Notes under the pieces: model-generated
The model's input: only the letters and a program-made list of their open reading frames with translations
What the model was told of the DNA's origin: nothing
The model's database searches: none
Made by a program: the position numbers and the translations under genes
DNA from: a phage
Strand: one strand, 5' to 3'
Sequence record: PZ452595.1
Length of the DNA stretch: 64,000 nt
Shown here: piece after piece, positions 25,509 to 58,701 of the stretch
Position numbering within the stretch: the stretch's first letter is position 1
Layout: each line of letters begins with the position of its first letter

Positions 25509-25538
25509 ACTATACCATAGTCTCGTCAGCTTGTAAAC
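25509..25538 (-). promoter_or_regulatory. T4-type early promoter upstream of dmd
   Basis: GTTTACA - 17 nt - TATAGT. Confidence 0.6.
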
Positions 25539-26965
25539 TAAAATTTTAATTCATTCGCCAAAGCATCTAACTGAGCTCGAGTGGATTCATTTCTTTGATA
25601 GCGATTCTGCTCAGCCTGAATCTGTTGTGAACCTGCTACTTCGTTCACTTCAGTTGGAGTAGAATCTTGTTCAATTTCTACCCATTTCTGATTTCCCTTT
25701 TGAACACCCATCAAAAACTTATTCCACTTATTCTTATCACCATATCGTGATTTGATTTGCTTAATGAGTTGTTGTTCAGCAGCTGCTAGCTCCTCGGTTT
25801 CAATGACCGCAAGCATAAAATCAGCTGTCGCTGGAAGACCAGCAGATTCTGCGATATCACTCATGTTAACATCAGAAGAATCCCAAGCTTGTTTGCCGAC
25901 CTGCGCTGCAGTCCAAAGAACAGTTTCGGTTTCAACAGCCAAAGCACGCAATTCCTCTGCAATAGCTTTAACAGTTGTGTAACTATTTTCTGAATAAACT
26001 CTAATACGGCAAGATTTACAAATACCAAGATAGTCGACAATAATGATTGTTGGAACAAAATTCTTCTTGAGCTTCAATTCGTTTAAAAGTGATCGAAATG
26101 TATTAGCATCTGCTCCACCAGTAGGATACTGTTTAACGATTAAACGCCCGAGAGTAGATTTCTCGCGCCATTTTTCCATTTTTCCTTTATACTCAGCGTA
26201 AGAAATATGCCCATCATCAATATCATCAAGAGAAACATCAAGCATATTAGCATCAATACGCTTAGCACAGACTTCTTCTGCCATTTCCATGGAAATGTAA
26301 AGAACGTTATGACCAAGCTGCAAATAATCTGCTGCCAATGAACACAATCCTAATGACTTACCAACGTTAACGCCAGCCATTAAAACGTTCAGTGTTCCAG
26401 TCTCAGCTCCGCCTTTAGTAATTTTGTTTAGAATTCTGAGTTTAAATGGAACCTTACGAGCTTTATTCATATAAGATAGCCAACGTGCTTCGTAGTCATC
26501 CATCCAGTCATGACCAACGTAGCTATCAAATGAAATTGATAATGCTTGCCGCATAATGTCAGGAATAGCACCAACATCCGGCATTTTCTTATTTCGTTTT
26601 TCCGGAGGAAGCTCAGCATTAGTTTGAATTTCGATTATTTTAGATGTAGCATTAAACATCGCCCTTTGCTGAACATATTTTTCTGTTTCTTTTACTAACC
26701 AGCTGTGGTCTTCCGGAGAATCAGCCAGTTTTGAAATAAGTGTTTTTACACCAGAATATTCTGTTTCAGTAAATGAACTATTTTCTAATGCAACATTTAA
26801 CGCATTAATAGATGGAACGCTATGATACTCATTGACATGAGATTTAATTAATTTGAATGTATTTTTAGCTGGACCACTTTCAAAATATTCTGAATCCATA
26901 TATGGCCAAACTTTTGAAAAATAAGCTTGATCAAATATGAGATGAGAAAGAATAATTTCTACCAC
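25538..26965 (-). CDS. 41: gp41 replicative DNA helicase
   Basis: 475 aa as T4 gp41; Walker A GVNVGKS. Confidence 0.9.
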   Translation of the reverse strand: MVEIILSHLIFDQAYFSKVWPYMDSEYFESGPAKNTFKLIKSHVNEYHSVPSINALNVALENSSFTETEYSGVKTLISKLADSPEDHSWLVKETEKYVQQRAMFNATSKIIEIQTNAELPPEKRNKKMPDVGAIPDIMRQALSISFDSYVGHDWMDDYEARWLSYMNKARKVPFKLRILNKITKGGAETGTLNVLMAGVNVGKSLGLCSLAADYLQLGHNVLYISMEMAEEVCAKRIDANMLDVSLDDIDDGHISYAEYKGKMEKWREKSTLGRLIVKQYPTGGADANTFRSLLNELKLKKNFVPTIIIVDYLGICKSCRIRVYSENSYTTVKAIAEELRALAVETETVLWTAAQVGKQAWDSSDVNMSDIAESAGLPATADFMLAVIETEELAAAEQQLIKQIKSRYGDKNKWNKFLMGVQKGNQKWVEIEQDSTPTEVNEVAGSQQIQAEQNRYQRNESTRAQLDALANELKF

Positions 26966-26974
26966 ACTTACTCC

Positions 26975-27337
26975 TTAAAAGAATTTAAATTTTTTCTTTG
27001 ACCTTTTATTAAATGCATCTTGTAGTTGCATTGTAATACATTTTTCTACATGAGGAGCTAACTCAGCTTTTCTTTCTTGGTCAAGAACAGCAAAGTCCAT
27101 TACAACCTTTCCATCAACCCAATCCAGTTTAGTTACATACACTATATGTGTAGAACCATCTTCTAGTTTAATGACAATCTCCTGGATAACATTTTCCATA
27201 GCAGATTTAATTATCTTAAGAGACTCATTAAAAAGACGTTCTTTTCTTTCTTCTTCCCCCTCCGAAGAGGGGGATTCATCGATAATTTCTAGATCTAAAT
27301 CTAAATCATCTTTATTCATTAAATTCTTCCATATCAC
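26975..27337 (-). CDS. 40: gp40-like protein (120 aa)
   Basis: Position between uvsX and 41 as T4 gene 40; acidic N-terminus. Confidence 0.65.
   Translation of the reverse strand: MIWKNLMNKDDLDLDLEIIDESPSSEGEEERKERLFNESLKIIKSAMENVIQEIVIKLEDGSTHIVYVTKLDWVDGKVVMDFAVLDQERKAELAPHVEKCITMQLQDAFNKRSKKKFKFF
27256..27273 (-). terminator. UUCG-tetraloop hairpin inside gene 40 coding sequence, just 3' of uvsX
   Basis: ccccctccgaagaggggg; 7-bp GC stem within codons ESPSSEGEE. Confidence 0.45.
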
Positions 27338-28493
27338 TTAACTGATCTAGATCAGTTTCTAAATCAGCTGCTGATTTACTTTTACTTTCTGGAGATTTAA
27401 ATTTTTCAACCTTTGAGTTAATCAATTCATCAACTTCAGCTTCAACAATTTCATTACTATCAATAGCACCTAACTGATAAGCACGTTTAATAGCATCTCG
27501 GAATGGTTGATGCTTAAATAAAGGACCCCAGAATGTAGTGCAGTTGGTATCTTTTGCACGCCAAGATTTTTCTTCGCGAATCATCTCGCCGGTTTCTTCG
27601 TCAAGAAATTCACGAGCATACCAACCGTTCTTAGGTTTTACCACGAATCCTAATTCTAGAGCCATATCTAACAATCCAGAATAAGGATCGATACCACCGT
27701 CAAATTTAACATCAATAAAGAATTTACTTTTTTCTTTAACGGTACGAGATTTTTCTACATTTAGAACAAATTGATACCCCTGAAGATCAGAACCATCTTT
27801 AATCTGGCGTTTACCGATAATGAATACAGTATCAGCCGAATACATTACGCCTGTACCACCTGTCATCACGGTTTTACTAAACATTTCAATTGTTTCAATT
27901 GTATGGTTAACCGCAACACATGGAATATTTTTAATGCTAAAATAAGGAGTAACAATACGGAATAATGACTTCAGTGATTTAGCACGAGTCATATCTGCCA
28001 CAGATTTTTCATTCAAGGCATCTTCCGTTTCTTTCTTAGAAGCCATATTACCGATTGAGTCGATGAATACAATAACCTTTTCACCACGCTCAATAGCTTC
28101 AAGCTGATTCACCATATCAATTTTCAGCTGTTCAACTGACTGAATTGGCGTATGAATTACTCGTTCCGGGTCAACTCCCATGGAACGTAAATAAGCTGGA
28201 GTAATACCAAATTCGCTATCATAGAATAGACAAACCGCGTCAGGATATTTGTTCAAATATGCCGCAACCATAGTCAAAGACATATTTGATTTAAAGTGTT
28301 TAGAAGGCCCTGCGAAAATAGTTAAACCAGACTGCATACCACCATCAATCGCACCAGAAATAGCGATATTAAGCATTGGGATTTTTGTACGGATTACATC
28401 CTTTTCATTAAAGAATTTAGATGTAGTCAGTTCAGCAGTCATTTTAGAAGTGGAAGCTTTAATCAAACGGGATTTTAAATCTGCAATAGACAT
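27312..28493 (-). CDS. uvsX: UvsX recombinase (RecA-like)
   Basis: 393 aa; MSIADLKSRLIKASTSK N-terminus as T4 UvsX. Confidence 0.9.
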   Translation of the reverse strand: MSIADLKSRLIKASTSKMTAELTTSKFFNEKDVIRTKIPMLNIAISGAIDGGMQSGLTIFAGPSKHFKSNMSLTMVAAYLNKYPDAVCLFYDSEFGITPAYLRSMGVDPERVIHTPIQSVEQLKIDMVNQLEAIERGEKVIVFIDSIGNMASKKETEDALNEKSVADMTRAKSLKSLFRIVTPYFSIKNIPCVAVNHTIETIEMFSKTVMTGGTGVMYSADTVFIIGKRQIKDGSDLQGYQFVLNVEKSRTVKEKSKFFIDVKFDGGIDPYSGLLDMALELGFVVKPKNGWYAREFLDEETGEMIREEKSWRAKDTNCTTFWGPLFKHQPFRDAIKRAYQLGAIDSNEIVEAEVDELINSKVEKFKSPESKSKSAADLETDLDQLSDMEEFNE

Positions 28494-28546
28494 TCATTTT
28501 TTCCATAGGCATCATTATATTTTCCTCACTGGTTAAAGATAGAGTA

Positions 28547-28571
28547 ATTATAACACAATAAATTTAGGCAT
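28547..28571 (-). promoter_or_regulatory. promoter-like element upstream of uvsX (extended -10)
   Basis: TGTTATAAT with TGCCTAA MotA-box-like element ~11 nt upstream. Confidence 0.35.
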
Positions 28572-29413
28572 TAATCAACTGCTATTGGATGAATAGCATT
28601 AAACTTATGAAATGCTTCTGATTTTTCTTTACGCGAAACACACATGCGAAGAACCTTTAATGGCTCATCTTCTTCACCCAACGATTTTCGTTTTTCAATA
28701 TTAGAAGTTTTCCAACGAGCTTGTTCTGGAAACTCTCTATTGATTTGCTCAAGCGCTCTATTATGTTTAGAATTACTACGAATTGAACTGCACCCGCCAG
28801 GAGCTTGTGCTTTTCCAGATACAACCAGATATTTGAACAAGGCCAAATGCGGATAACCTTGATTAATTAAATTGAGAAATGCATACATATCTTCGCATAA
28901 ATCAATTTTTCCATACCCAATTTGTTCTGTCGTAAGTTTTCCGAGGTCATACCATGTATTCGTGAATCCATATGAATTTTCACGATAATTACCCCAAGAT
29001 GAAGTAATTTTAAAAATAGGTAGACGAGCATGGCCATGATAATACCCGCAATCCATGGCATCTTCAACGTATTGAATCAATTCATAGAACTGTTCACGAG
29101 TTAATTGATTAACTTTATCTACGCAGCGACGATCATCTCTCTTTCGCATTGAACTCATACGAATAGTAGTATCATCGTCAATCATCCAGATTCGTTGACC
29201 TGCATACATATCAGTAATAGCTTTACGAGTACCGGCAATTCCATTTACATCATCAGGAATAGTTATAATTTTAGCTCTAGACCCATAGGCATCACAATAA
29301 GCTTTTTCTTCGTGTTCACGCACTACAATATGCGGTTCATAATCAGTCGGAAACATATCAAGGGCAGAAACTGCCCCAACACGCTGATAACTTGGAATTA
29401 CGAATTGAATCAT
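28571..29413 (-). CDS. glycosyltransferase (DxD type), occupying the T4 beta-gt position
   Basis: ~280 aa from ATG (track start is GTG); IWMIDDDTTI DxD motif; ATGA coupling with gene 42. Confidence 0.6.
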   Translation of the reverse strand: MIQFVIPSYQRVGAVSALDMFPTDYEPHIVVREHEEKAYCDAYGSRAKIITIPDDVNGIAGTRKAITDMYAGQRIWMIDDDTTIRMSSMRKRDDRRCVDKVNQLTREQFYELIQYVEDAMDCGYYHGHARLPIFKITSSWGNYRENSYGFTNTWYDLGKLTTEQIGYGKIDLCEDMYAFLNLINQGYPHLALFKYLVVSGKAQAPGGCSSIRSNSKHNRALEQINREFPEQARWKTSNIEKRKSLGEEDEPLKVLRMCVSRKEKSEAFHKFNAIHPIAVD

Positions 29414-30150
29414 TTCCACTCACCTTTATAGTCTTTTTTCACAATATGAGTTTCGCCAGTATTCCACCAATGATCAACCAAGTAAAAATGACGAGAATAT
29501 ACATGAAGACTTCCAACATTCCATATAATAGAACCTGCTTTATACTGACGAGTTGAATCGCCTGCATTCAAATCAGATACTAATTTATCTAATACGTATT
29601 TTTGCCATGCATAATCATTACGGAATCCGAAGACTACGTCATTTGAGCGCATGTTAACAACTGCATTGATTTTCTTGTCACGAATCAGGTATTGTACTGT
29701 ATTCGTACACATGAAATCTGACATACCATCTTTATTGTAGTCAAATTGCATAGATGGACGAGTATAAATCATGATACCACGTCGAGAATCAGGATTTTGA
29801 CCAAGTTCAGCTAAACACATATCATACTGAGCATAATTATCTTCTGACCAAATAGCCCAACCATAATTCGAGTTAATTTCACCTTTAGAAGATGCTACTT
29901 GTTGCCAAATCTTCGGTGTTTCACCCGGAATATCTTTAACGAACAAGCTCTTAGATTTATACCATTCAAGTTCACGCTGGATGTATTCATCATTAAGAGC
30001 GCCAAAAATAAACGGTTCATCTGCTACAAATGATGCGCCAATAATTTCAATAGTTTTAACGCCAGTTTTATCAACTACGAAATCTTTTTCTTTTAATGCA
30101 AGCCCCAAATGAAGACGGATTTCTTCAACTGTCATAGAGTCACTAATCAT
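29410..30150 (-). CDS. 42: gp42 dCMP hydroxymethylase
   Basis: 246 aa as T4 gp42; thymidylate-synthase-like with catalytic Cys in FMCTNT. Confidence 0.85.
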   Translation of the reverse strand: MISDSMTVEEIRLHLGLALKEKDFVVDKTGVKTIEIIGASFVADEPFIFGALNDEYIQRELEWYKSKSLFVKDIPGETPKIWQQVASSKGEINSNYGWAIWSEDNYAQYDMCLAELGQNPDSRRGIMIYTRPSMQFDYNKDGMSDFMCTNTVQYLIRDKKINAVVNMRSNDVVFGFRNDYAWQKYVLDKLVSDLNAGDSTRQYKAGSIIWNVGSLHVYSRHFYLVDHWWNTGETHIVKKDYKGEWK

Positions 30151-31352: not shown

Positions 31353-31370
31353 AGGGACCCGGAGGTCCCT
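31353..31370 (-). terminator. tetraloop hairpin after gene 43
   Basis: agggacccggaggtccct; loop UCCG on minus strand. Confidence 0.55.
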
Positions 31371-46577: not shown

Positions 46578-47048
46578 TTAATCATGTGTCCACCCCTCAT
46601 CGGTATTTGACCAAAGTCGCTGATTATCTGATCCTCGCCACAGCTTTTTGGTCGGAAGATTTTTCTCATACTTCCCATCAATAATAACATCAACATATTT
46701 AAGCATTTCTAGTTGTTTAATATCTTCAAACTTATATCCTGTCCACAACCAAATGCTTTTATTGGGATAAAGATTTTTAATAGTTTGAACCACAGAGTGA
46801 ATCACGTCTCTGTTATCAGGATAAAGAGGGTCTCCTCCAGTTATAGTTAATCCTTCTATATAATCATTATTCAAACATTCAATTAATTGCTCTAGTGTTT
46901 CACCAGTGAATGGAATGCCATTTCTAGCATTCCATGTTGATTTATTATAACACCCTTCACATTTATGCAAACAACCTGTAACGAAAAGAACGACCCTGCA
47001 ACCAGGGCCATTCACAAAATCGCAAGGATAAAATCTATCATAATTCAT
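46578..47048 (-). CDS. nrdG: NrdG, anaerobic ribonucleotide reductase activase (radical SAM)
   Basis: 156 aa as T4 NrdG; cysteine cluster CLHKCEGC. Confidence 0.85.
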   Translation of the reverse strand: MNYDRFYPCDFVNGPGCRVVLFVTGCLHKCEGCYNKSTWNARNGIPFTGETLEQLIECLNNDYIEGLTITGGDPLYPDNRDVIHSVVQTIKNLYPNKSIWLWTGYKFEDIKQLEMLKYVDVIIDGKYEKNLPTKKLWRGSDNQRLWSNTDEGWTHD

Positions 47049-56605: not shown

Positions 56606-57574
56606 TTATTTCAGAAGAGTAACCTCAGCAATTTCTTCCCAACCGTTTTTGTCGGTCATAATAAAGTCAGCAAGATAAAGAGCAGTACGCAGTGAAACAT
56701 TGCGTAAACGATTAACATTAACTTTCATCCATGATAATGCTTTATAAGTTTCTTCATCAGAAAGACCACGCTTTTGCATCATGTCGGTTGAAAGAATAAC
56801 ATCTTCAACCCTGACCATAATTTCTTCATTAGTGTGAACACCCAAATCCAAATAAACTGAGCGGGACACTAATGCTTGTAAATGTGGAGCAAGTTTAGTA
56901 CCACGGTCTAATTCGCGGTCAATGTCAACGTTTGTGATAAAAACAATCGTTCCTTTAAATTCAAACTCACGCTCAATGCCTTTTTCTTCTAAGTAAGAAG
57001 ATGCGGTACTCCAGCAGACTTTACGGGTCTCTCCAGTGTCCAGAGCAGCTTTCAGAAGATTAAGAATGTCCATATCAGAGAAAACATCCACATCATCAAT
57101 CAAAAGGACAGAATTCTCTTCACGATTATTCCAAAGCTGCTCATAAAGACCAATACCAGAGATTTTACCATTAATGCTTTTATACTCAATGTATCCAATA
57201 TCATTTGCTTTATTTAAAGCTTTATCTAAAGAATACGTTTTACCAATACCCGCCGCACCAGAGATAATTAATGAACGAATATTTCCGTTAATAATACCGT
57301 TCGTCATCATTCCCATAACATTAAATCTTTTATTAATGCGGGTTTTCATATCTTCATATGATTCTTTAACTTCTTCAACTTTTACACCATCATATGAAAT
57401 GTCTGATTTGTAAACCCAAACACCGCGACGCTTACCGTCAATTTCAACAAAAACTTTACCATCTCCTTGTGCATCTACCGGAGCATTATCTGGGAACCAT
57501 TCGCCCAAGAGTTCAAAAGTTCCAGAGATTTCTTTACCGAAGTAGATACCCTTATTGATAGTTACAGTTTTCAT
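56606..57574 (-). CDS. P-loop (AAA-like) ATPase, uncharacterised
   Basis: Walker A GAAGIGKT, Walker B VLLIDDVD; ATG after GGAG; track start 57691 reads through terminator and promoter. Confidence 0.65.
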   Translation of the reverse strand: MKTVTINKGIYFGKEISGTFELLGEWFPDNAPVDAQGDGKVFVEIDGKRRGVWVYKSDISYDGVKVEEVKESYEDMKTRINKRFNVMGMMTNGIINGNIRSLIISGAAGIGKTYSLDKALNKANDIGYIEYKSINGKISGIGLYEQLWNNREENSVLLIDDVDVFSDMDILNLLKAALDTGETRKVCWSTASSYLEEKGIEREFEFKGTIVFITNVDIDRELDRGTKLAPHLQALVSRSVYLDLGVHTNEEIMVRVEDVILSTDMMQKRGLSDEETYKALSWMKVNVNRLRNVSLRTALYLADFIMTDKNGWEEIAEVTLLK

Positions 57575-57608
57575 TTTATTCTCCAAATCCGTATCAGTTG
57601 ATAGTTGT

Positions 57609-57638
57609 ATAGTACCATAAAGCTTTATGCTTGTAAAC
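57609..57638 (-). promoter_or_regulatory. T4-type early promoter upstream of P-loop ATPase gene
   Basis: GTTTACA - 17 nt - TACTAT. Confidence 0.55.
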
Positions 57639-57667
57639 AGTTTTGTGAAAAATTTTTGAAATAAAAA

Positions 57668-57685
57668 GGGAGCCCGAAGGCTCCC
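57668..57685 (-). terminator. UUCG-tetraloop hairpin after nucleotidyltransferase-like gene
   Basis: gggagcccgaaggctccc. Confidence 0.55.
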
Positions 57686-57687
57686 TA

Positions 57688-58701
57688 TCATTTATAATAA
57701 CTTCGGTGGTTTTCAAGATAGACCTTCTCAAGGAAGTCATCCCAGAAACCCATGTCTACTTTTTGCTGCATACCATTCTTAGAAGCTTCAGTAGATGCTG
57801 CTTCTACTTGATCGACCACATCTTCCAAAAACTCTTGAACCGTTTTAAATGGATGTTTACCCAACTTCACGTCGAGAATAAATGGAGCATCTTGGAGTGG
57901 ATAAACCAGGTCACCAGTTTTGTAAATTTCCAATAGTTGGAGTCCACCACGACAAGCATGACTCAGAGCTTTCCAGTCAATACCTTCATTGGCTTCGGCC
58001 TTACGAGCGCGTTCACCATATTCAGCATCTAATTTGTTCAGTGACTGCTTAAGCTCAATAAGAGAAAGAGTTGTCTGATATTTACGACCCAACACTGTGT
58101 AAAACATCTGTGGGCCTGTTTTCTCATGATTATGGAACACCCATTCACAGAATTCGTTTTCTGGAAGACGATGCTTAATATCTTCAACTTTAGTACGACG
58201 CTGCTTAATAGAACCATCTTCTTGGTAATCAACCCATTGCTCAGGGATTTGATTAACTACTTTCAATACATCACGTAATGCAGCCAAACGAGAACCCTTG
58301 ACACCGTATTTAGAAGCTTGCTTGCGGACATATCCTAAATATGATTTCATGTTAGTCGTATAAAAACGAGAACGGTTGTCTTGGATAAACTTCCACACAT
58401 CAGGCAAATCAGATTTAACCACTAGTTCAGGTGGAGTGTGAAGCATATCTAATGCTACGGTTTCACCATCTGCTGCTAATTTAAAGAAATACTTAAGACT
58501 GTATAGTTCATGGTCAATATCATCTTTAGTGTTTTTAGATGATGTGTTGTTGGTATTTTTACTCATATGCTCTTTGACGTTTCCGATAAGAATATCGCGA
58601 GCAGGAGGAACAAAGATTTCTTTAAAATCTAAGTCAGATTCTGGGGTAGAAGTTCCATACAGATGACTACCAAAATAGCTTTTCATTACTGTTTTCATCA
58701 T
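57688..58701 (-). CDS. pol-beta-superfamily nucleotidyltransferase-like protein, uncharacterised
   Basis: N-terminal GSHLYGTSTPESDLDF fits hG[GS]x9-13Dx[DE]; 337 aa. Confidence 0.6.
   Translation of the reverse strand: MMKTVMKSYFGSHLYGTSTPESDLDFKEIFVPPARDILIGNVKEHMSKNTNNTSSKNTKDDIDHELYSLKYFFKLAADGETVALDMLHTPPELVVKSDLPDVWKFIQDNRSRFYTTNMKSYLGYVRKQASKYGVKGSRLAALRDVLKVVNQIPEQWVDYQEDGSIKQRRTKVEDIKHRLPENEFCEWVFHNHEKTGPQMFYTVLGRKYQTTLSLIELKQSLNKLDAEYGERARKAEANEGIDWKALSHACRGGLQLLEIYKTGDLVYPLQDAPFILDVKLGKHPFKTVQEFLEDVVDQVEAASTEASKNGMQQKVDMGFWDDFLEKVYLENHRSYYK

Follow-up and report, generated by a model that had tools for sequence, protein, structure and literature searches.

The window, by which we mean the whole stretch of 64,000 nucleotides analysed here (PZ452595.1), derives from a T2-type Tequatrovirus. 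The 1.7 kb around the feature under study was 99.1% identical to phage T2 and carried, on the minus strand, the genes for beta-glucosyl-HMC-alpha-glucosyltransferase and uvsX followed by genes 40 and 41 (Table 1). The ATG of gene 40 overlaps the end of uvsX (AUGAAUAA), and the T4 annotation shows the identical overlap. A short G/C-rich hairpin is embedded in the first part of gene 40, in the segment coding for the N-terminal extension of gp40.

Table 1. Positions of the genes and of the hairpin in the uvsX, gene 40 and gene 41 region of the window
Feature	Positions	Strand	Basis and remarks
uvsX, RecA-like recombinase, 393 aa	27312..28493	minus	ORF and annotation in T2 and relatives; stop TAA 27314-27312
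Gene 40, head vertex assembly chaperone, 114 aa	26975..27319	minus	ORF and annotated relatives; ATG 27319-27317
gp40 variable acidic N-terminal extension, about codons 1-33, bearing the hairpin	27221..27319	minus	Protein alignment
RNA hairpin U-CCCCCUC-UUCG-GAGGGGG-A	27255..27274	minus	Fold and sequence reading; C(UUCG)G tetraloop
Gene 41, replicative helicase, GTG start	25538..26965	minus	ORF and annotation in relatives

On the minus strand, the arms of the stem are CCCCCTC (27273-27267) and GAGGGGG (27262-27256), with the TTCG loop at 27266-27263. The core consists of seven G/C-rich pairs, and an outer T-A pair (U-A in the RNA; 27274-27255) extends the stem to 8 bp. The hairpin starts 37-38 nt downstream of the uvsX stop and occupies codons 16-22 of gene 40, which are read as S-P-S-S-E-G-E (in the context ...DESPSSEGEEE...). 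An earlier note on this DNA had reported a UUCG hairpin here, about 40 nt past the uvsX stop; its coordinates, sequence and peptide were correct when read from the minus strand and its distance agreed with ours, and the codons that it assigned, 20-27 of gene 40, are replaced by the numbers given above.

The 30-nt segment containing the hairpin had a minimum free energy of -16.7 kcal/mol and ranked third for stability among all 63,971 segments of this length on the minus strand; these averaged -2.28 (sd 2.19). In a fold of the complete 358-nt stretch that precedes gene 41, each pair of the stem formed with a probability of at least 0.998, and the hairpin was the sole strong stem-loop of that region (-16.7 vs. 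-7.1 kcal/mol for the runner-up). No U-rich tract was present 3' of the stem (tail AGAAGAAAGA / AGAAGAAAGAAAAGA), the gene 40 hairpin was not scored as terminator-like in the terminator scan, and the Rfam covariance models gave no family match for it. The GenBank and RefSeq records of T4 carry no regulatory annotation at the uvsX/gene 40 hairpin site.

Some other characteristics of this neighborhood were observed. Directly upstream of uvsX (28494-29419) the window encodes the 282-aa beta-glucosyl-HMC-alpha-glucosyltransferase and has no segA, which corresponds to the T2/T6-type arrangement; the region upstream of uvsX in T4 (NC_000866 23562-25455) holds the homing endonuclease gene segA and a 351-aa beta-glucosyltransferase. 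The last ~15 codons of uvsX contain, just before the stop, a local structure at 27340-27369 on the minus strand (AGCUGAUUUAGAAACUGAUCUAGAUCAGUU, -13.0 kcal/mol), and a small AU-rich stem at 27310-27281 lies between the uvsX stop and the hairpin. The 3' region of uvsX, with these two structures, may fold as a multi-hairpin unit.

UUCG hairpins in the window

Hairpins with a UUCG loop and a stem of at least 6 bp numbered 13 on the minus strand, which is the strand of all genes here, and none was found on the plus strand; the expectation from 200 dinucleotide shuffles was 0.8 (maximum 4). Ten of the 13 started within -3 to +4 nt of the stop of an ORF of at least 60 aa, and one additional hairpin, with a UCCG loop (31353-31370), was located 12 nt past a stop. 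The class of gene-end hairpins described in the earlier note is real and strand-biased, with 12-13 members at the 6-bp threshold instead of the 14 or more counted there. Its statement that one copy lies inside a gene rather than at a gene end also held: the gene 40 copy was the only one truly within coding sequence, the other 12 being noncoding. About seven of these 12 likewise had no U-tract, so that the gene 40 copy is typical in this respect.

C(UUCG)G hairpins were discovered in T4 mRNA (Tuerk et al., 1988, as summarised in PMC4371310). The gene 40 copy resembles them in its C-G-closed UUCG loop on a G/C-rich stem, in its location on the transcribed strand and in belonging to an over-represented class. 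It differs from them in position, since it is translated instead of being intercistronic right after a stop; the intercistronic position was found in relatives with a short gp40. The bypass hairpin of T4 gene 60 is also a UUCG hairpin within a T4 coding region, and the gene 40 copy is flanked by GAA codons on both sides. Unlike gene 60, gene 40 has no take-off codon with a stop behind it and stays in one open frame across the stem, and within each genus the encoded peptide is conserved. No evidence of bypassing at the gene 40 hairpin was found in the sequence, and a frameshift or bypass site was discarded on account of the absent slippery heptamer, the absence of a stop and the continuous frame.

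Two other candidate functions of the segment were also rejected. The GGAG of the 3' arm, considered as a cleavage site for RegB, is enclosed in the stem and is not kept in relatives (in Mosigvirus it reads GGAAGGGG). An alternative start of gene 40 past the hairpin was discarded because no in-frame ATG, GTG or TTG occurs between the stem and Met41, and the differences that close relatives show in the extension are synonymous or in-frame.

Two hairpins elsewhere in the window deserve mention. The copy at 57667-57686 (minus strand), which had appeared to be a second coding-embedded one, is an intergenic terminator and the call of the enclosing ORF was over-extended. It is a canonical UUCG terminator (AGGGAGCC-UUCG-GGCUCCCU followed by UUUUAUUU) located 1 nt past a 337-aa ORF, and the true start of the mechanically called ORF 56606..57691 is likely an ATG near 57573 that is preceded by a promoter-like TTTACA...TACTAT and by a GGAG Shine-Dalgarno. 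The palindrome at 1159-1194 (AGGGAGAGCC-UCGG-GCUCUCCCU) was of similar stability on both strands (-18.6 on the minus and -18.1 on the plus strand), with an A-rich flank on one side and a U-rich flank on the other, by which it may be a bidirectional terminator.

Conservation of the pairing and of the peptide

The stem of the gene 40 hairpin is written in the rarest codons of the long ORFs of the window: CCC accounted for 3 of 350 proline codons and GGG for 41 of 588 glycine codons, and the serine codons of the stem were rare as well (TCC 30/719 and TCG 36/719). When synonymous versions of the first 33 codons of gene 40 were drawn according to the codon usage of the phage itself, the observed stability was matched by none of 1000 recodings folded in the T alphabet without a UUCG bonus (observed value -15.8) and by none of 500 recodings folded in the U alphabet (observed value -16.7). 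Matching recodings amounted to 0-2 per 1000 in T4, Mosigvirus, Karamvirus, Gelderlandvirus, and Marfavirus, and to 8-28 per 1000 in Jiaodavirus, Gaprivervirus, and Dhakavirus.

The sequence of the hairpin was identical in T4, at +45 to +64 of gene 40, a register in which the third positions of codons pair with one another. The earlier note had suggested comparing gene 40 across relatives for covariation that preserves the stem, and two compensatory synonymous double changes were found, CCC>CCU with GAG>GAA in Mosigvirus and UCC>UCU with GGG>GGA in Jiaodavirus. Among ten distinct codon-aligned sequences and seven core pairs, all 70 cells were paired (70/70), two pairs being changed on both sides and none on one side only; as the sample of ten sequences is small, this covariation is supportive but not decisive. 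The loops varied freely (UUCG, UUUG, UCAG, and GGAA) despite the cost of a Ser>Leu, Ser>Gln or Ser>Glu replacement.

In more distant genera, a hairpin of -12 to -20 kcal/mol was found at the equivalent position, but neither its sequence nor the encoded peptide was the same. Marfavirus presented GCUCCCCUU-GAAG-AAGGGGAGU, with the register shifted by 1 nt, and Gaprivervirus GCGGAGGGAGC-UAAG-GCUCCUUCUGU, with the arms swapped and the peptide EGAKAPS in contrast with P-S-S-E-G. The hairpin was GAGGGUC-CUAGU-GACCCUC in Dhakavirus and CCUCCCC-UUCG-GGGGAGG in a metagenomic phage (L072), and one Acinetobacter-type phage (L059) also had a hairpin at the equivalent place. Pairing is kept by compensation or by replacement, beyond what the protein needs, as expected of a conserved RNA element.

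That the palindrome arose by chance, or as a by-product of an important gp40 peptide, PSSEGE, and has no RNA function is very improbable. Residues E15, P17, E20, and G21 were invariant in six of six gp40 sequences with the extension, which speaks for the peptide. This is opposed by the failure of synonymous recodings to reach the observed stability (0/1000 and 0/500), by the compensatory synonymous changes, by hairpins of other lineages that encode unrelated peptides, including the mirror-image EG..PS, by the persistence of the stem while the loop tolerates Ser>Leu and Ser>Gln, and by the complete absence of the segment from short gp40 proteins. It is the P-S-x-E-G peptide that is the by-product of the stem, in which CCC/UCN pairs with GAN/GGG.

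Versions bearing G·U pairs were far stronger on the mRNA strand than on the opposite one (-19.8 vs. -9.0 in Gaprivervirus and -18.5 vs. -13.0 in Marfavirus), which speaks for an RNA rather than a DNA element. An element acting as DNA, either a cruciform or a protein-binding palindrome, would account for the perfect symmetry of the palindrome and for an antisense stability only slightly lower in most lineages. It is nevertheless scarcely credible, given that the G·U pairs leave the versions of Gaprivervirus, Marfavirus, and L059 much weaker on the other strand, that the loops are RNA-specific stability motifs (UUCG, GGAA, and GAAA), that the class is distributed 13:0 in favor of the transcribed strand, and that the pairing is conserved while the sequence is not.

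Selection acts on the RNA structure beyond the peptide. The proposal of the earlier note that the coding sequence is constrained by RNA structure was borne out by the rare codons together with the recoding tests, by the compensatory changes, by the replacement hairpins and by the strand bias of the G·U pairs. It is a case of RNA structure dictating protein sequence, with the stem kept in at least nine Straboviridae lineages and the peptide changing even to its mirror image.

Placement of the hairpin in relatives

The gp40 proteins of 13 genera were aligned and, this set being too divergent, relatives were gathered through single queries and a tighter alignment was made. The conserved core of gp40 starts approximately at K-S-L-x-I-I-x-x-A-M, and the ~30 residues preceding it constitute a variable acidic extension. 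In all the Tevenvirinae genera examined the hairpin was coding, and a U-tract was absent from every coding-embedded version examined (tails AGAAGAAAGA, AAUUUGAAAG, and similar ones). Krischvirus, Pseudotevenvirus, and an Aeromonas phage have a short gp40 without the extension, and the hairpin was intergenic there, 4-10 nt past the upstream stop and 29-45 nt ahead of the ATG of gene 40.

Several of the intergenic versions look like terminators. The hairpin of Krischvirus (AAAGGGGC-UACGU-GCCCCUUU followed by UUC) and that of the phages L051-L054 (GGGGGC-UUU(U)-GCCCCC followed by UUUU) are canonical ones, and in Pseudotevenvirus NC_031057 the hairpin is annotated as "terminator", some relatives carrying UUUU tails. 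The gene 40 hairpin of the window shares with intrinsic terminators a G/C-rich stem-loop downstream of a gene but not the U-tract, in contrast with these equivalents of Krischvirus and some Pseudotevenvirus relatives, which have U-tracts and are annotated as intrinsic terminators or resemble them. Without a U-tract it is not a canonical intrinsic terminator, and efficient intrinsic termination is not expected of it.

The distance from the hairpin to the core motif of gp40 was similar for coding and intergenic versions, at 31-56 nt in the former and, in the latter, 53-56 nt (Pseudotevenvirus) or 63-76 nt (Krischvirus and the Aeromonas phage). The hairpin is coding only because gene 40 of Tevenvirinae has an N-terminal extension and a start that overlaps the uvsX stop. 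The simplest reading of this distribution, made from the distribution itself and not from a reconstructed phylogeny, is that an ancestral gene-end hairpin would have been absorbed as the start of gene 40 moved upstream over the uvsX stop. In the annotation of T4-like phages, gene-end hairpins are worth seeking also inside downstream genes that overlap, up to codon ~30.

No comparable hairpin was found in most of the Acinetobacter phages examined (Melin, ZZ1, and L058), and it is thus not indispensable. In the Aeromonas phage Aswh_1 the gene directly upstream of the hairpin was not uvsX, so that the hairpin of this phage might just as well be associated with the 5' side of gene 40.

As regards gene order, small hypothetical ORFs were located directly upstream of gene 40 in Acinetobacter phage ZZ1 (L026) and in Aswh_1 (L027), the place that uvsX takes in other lineages. 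In the latter, uvsX is placed just before the inserted ORF, and gene 40 is followed by a hypothetical ORF and not by gene 41. These arrangements indicated that the uvsX-40-41 synteny is not universal.

RNA 3' ends and possible functions

According to Kim et al. (2025; PMC12152347), who cite Hinton (1989), the 358 nt that precede T4 gene 41 contain a stem-loop, and an in vivo RNA 3' end lies immediately past it. The same source reports that more RNA ends in this upstream region in rho mutants, that the extension of RNA into gene 41 responds to rho (nusD) and goF alleles, and that the level of gene 41 mRNA depends on RNA extending beyond the gene 40 region. It also reports that GoF(D25Y) raises the expression of a reporter placed behind the 358-nt region through RNA stabilisation, the effect being strongest on that region (PMC12152347). 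In T4, these 358 nt are exactly gene 40 plus the uvsX stop. As the T4 sequence is identical and no other strong stem-loop is present there, we take the published stem-loop to be the gene 40 hairpin (CCCCCUCUUCGGAGGGGG). The locus is the same in both cases, with the difference that the window is from a T2-type phage, and the identity with the published stem-loop is deduced on the grounds just given.

A stem-loop with an adjacent 3' end, apparently this one, is already described for T4 in that source. Since the element was known, the present results are a refinement and not a discovery. What they add is the cross-genus evidence for conservation of RNA over peptide, the alternation between coding and intergenic placement, the covariation and the replacement hairpins, which we did not find in the accessible literature. 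The review of Uzan and Miller makes no mention of the uvsX/gene 40 hairpin site, and our literature search yielded nothing usable on genome-wide mapping of T4 3' ends or on this hairpin.

Our main reading, to which we give a probability of about 0.75, is that the hairpin is a 3'-end-defining element of uvsX transcripts in T-even phages, acting mainly as a barrier to exonucleases and possibly as a weak terminator. A barrier of this kind calls for a local stem-loop of high thermodynamic stability that folds within the surrounding RNA, and such a structure was found here (third in stability on its strand, pairs at 0.998 or more). The suggestion of the earlier note that the hairpin may define the 3' end of the uvsX mRNA is supported by the 3' end reported for T4 (PMC12152347), on the understanding that the two stem-loops are probably the same. 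The barrier is most likely the main mode because there is no U-tract, and the stabilisation of RNA by GoF(D25Y) makes a decay-related role fit better than pure termination.

The hairpin would fold on the mRNA as soon as it is transcribed and would mainly block 3'->5' exonucleases, perhaps serving as well as a weak, factor-influenced site of pausing or termination. RNA decaying from downstream, or ending nearby, would be trimmed to the base of the stem, leaving a stable uvsX message, and only a part of the RNA would go on as uvsX-40-41 readthrough. The predicted outcome is more UvsX than gp40 or gp41 helicase, and the proportion of recombinase to helicase mRNA is probably set by the hairpin. 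Since translation of gene 40 requires ribosomes to open the stem, the barrier would need sparse translation of gene 40, or decay that outruns translation.

Intercistronic stem-loops that block 3' exonucleases and give rise to differential mRNA stability within operons are exemplified by the REP elements of malEFG and the hairpins of the puf operon. The gene 40 hairpin resembles them as a stable stem-loop that separates a strongly expressed cistron from downstream ones expressed at lower levels, RNA 3' ends being reported at the base of what is probably this stem. Unlike them, it is embedded in translated sequence, and the stabilisation of uvsX RNA by it is a prediction.

The early location of the stem, at codons 16-22 and in the rarest codons, could also suggest a translational brake as the main function, in which the stem would hold back ribosomes on their way into gene 40 and, by coupling, into gene 41, keeping the chaperone and the helicase low and making the RNA 3' ends secondary. 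Some modulation of gene 40 translation, the other option named in the earlier note, may occur. The coupling of the gene 40 start to the uvsX stop, the coding placement kept across the Tevenvirinae genera examined, and the post-transcriptional action of the 358-nt region on a downstream reporter (PMC12152347) are compatible with it. We consider it unlikely, however, as the intergenic hairpins of Krischvirus, Pseudotevenvirus, and Aeromonas phages cannot slow elongation, the stem begins at +45 or later, which is beyond the initiation footprint, stems of 7-8 bp are normally unwound by elongating ribosomes, and the remainder of the UUCG class is found at gene ends and not at coding starts.

It is less probable still that the hairpin acts from the 5' side, capping a processed 40-41 mRNA against 5'-end-dependent decay by RNase E after an endonucleolytic cut just upstream. 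The spacing between the hairpin and the gp40 core is conserved to about the same degree as that between the upstream stop and the hairpin, the hairpin of Aswh_1 precedes gene 40 without uvsX directly upstream, and the rho/goF literature concerns regulation of gene 41 mRNA stability (PMC12152347), all of which would fit such a cap. Yet the end described next to the stem-loop is a 3' end and not a 5' end (PMC12152347), the RNA processed from coding versions would lose the start codon of gene 40, and several intergenic versions have U-tracts of the terminator type.

The exonuclease-barrier reading may be extended, tentatively and with rather low confidence, to an evolutionary and regulatory one. 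An ancestral intergenic terminator or stabiliser of uvsX, overprinted by gene 40, might now work as a translation-gated switch for the helicase gene 41 and be the site of the rho(nusD)/goF effects. Active translation of gene 40 would open the stem, and the RNA, or the RNA polymerase, would continue into gene 41; with poor translation of gene 40 the stem would form and the RNA would end there. The hairpin is in any case a place where the T4 rho(nusD)/goF phenotype, the loss of gene 41 RNA, could be dissected.

The nrdD/nrdG junction of the window has the same layout as that of uvsX and gene 40, the ATG of nrdG (47048) overlapping the nrdD stop. If the gating described above were true, this layout would make the translation-gated hairpin a general T-even device. 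The nrdG hairpin (GGCCCUG-GUUG-CAGGGUC, within 46986-47015 on the minus strand) had -18.7 kcal/mol and was the most stable on its strand. It covers codons ~13-20, 35-60 nt into the gene, and is followed by a U-rich run (GUUCUUUUCGUU). Its stability was reached by none of 500 synonymous recodings, and it was conserved in relatives, in which a compensatory C-G>U-A change costs a Val>Thr replacement (loci L080-L107). A different strong hairpin was present at +7 of nrdG in the Pseudotevenvirus relatives. A second nrdG hairpin of the window (46910-46935, minus strand; AUGGAAUGCUA-GAAA-UGGCAUUCCAU), with 11 bp, a GNRA loop and -15.2 kcal/mol, was located at codons ~38-47, and its stability was reached in 4 of 500 recodings.
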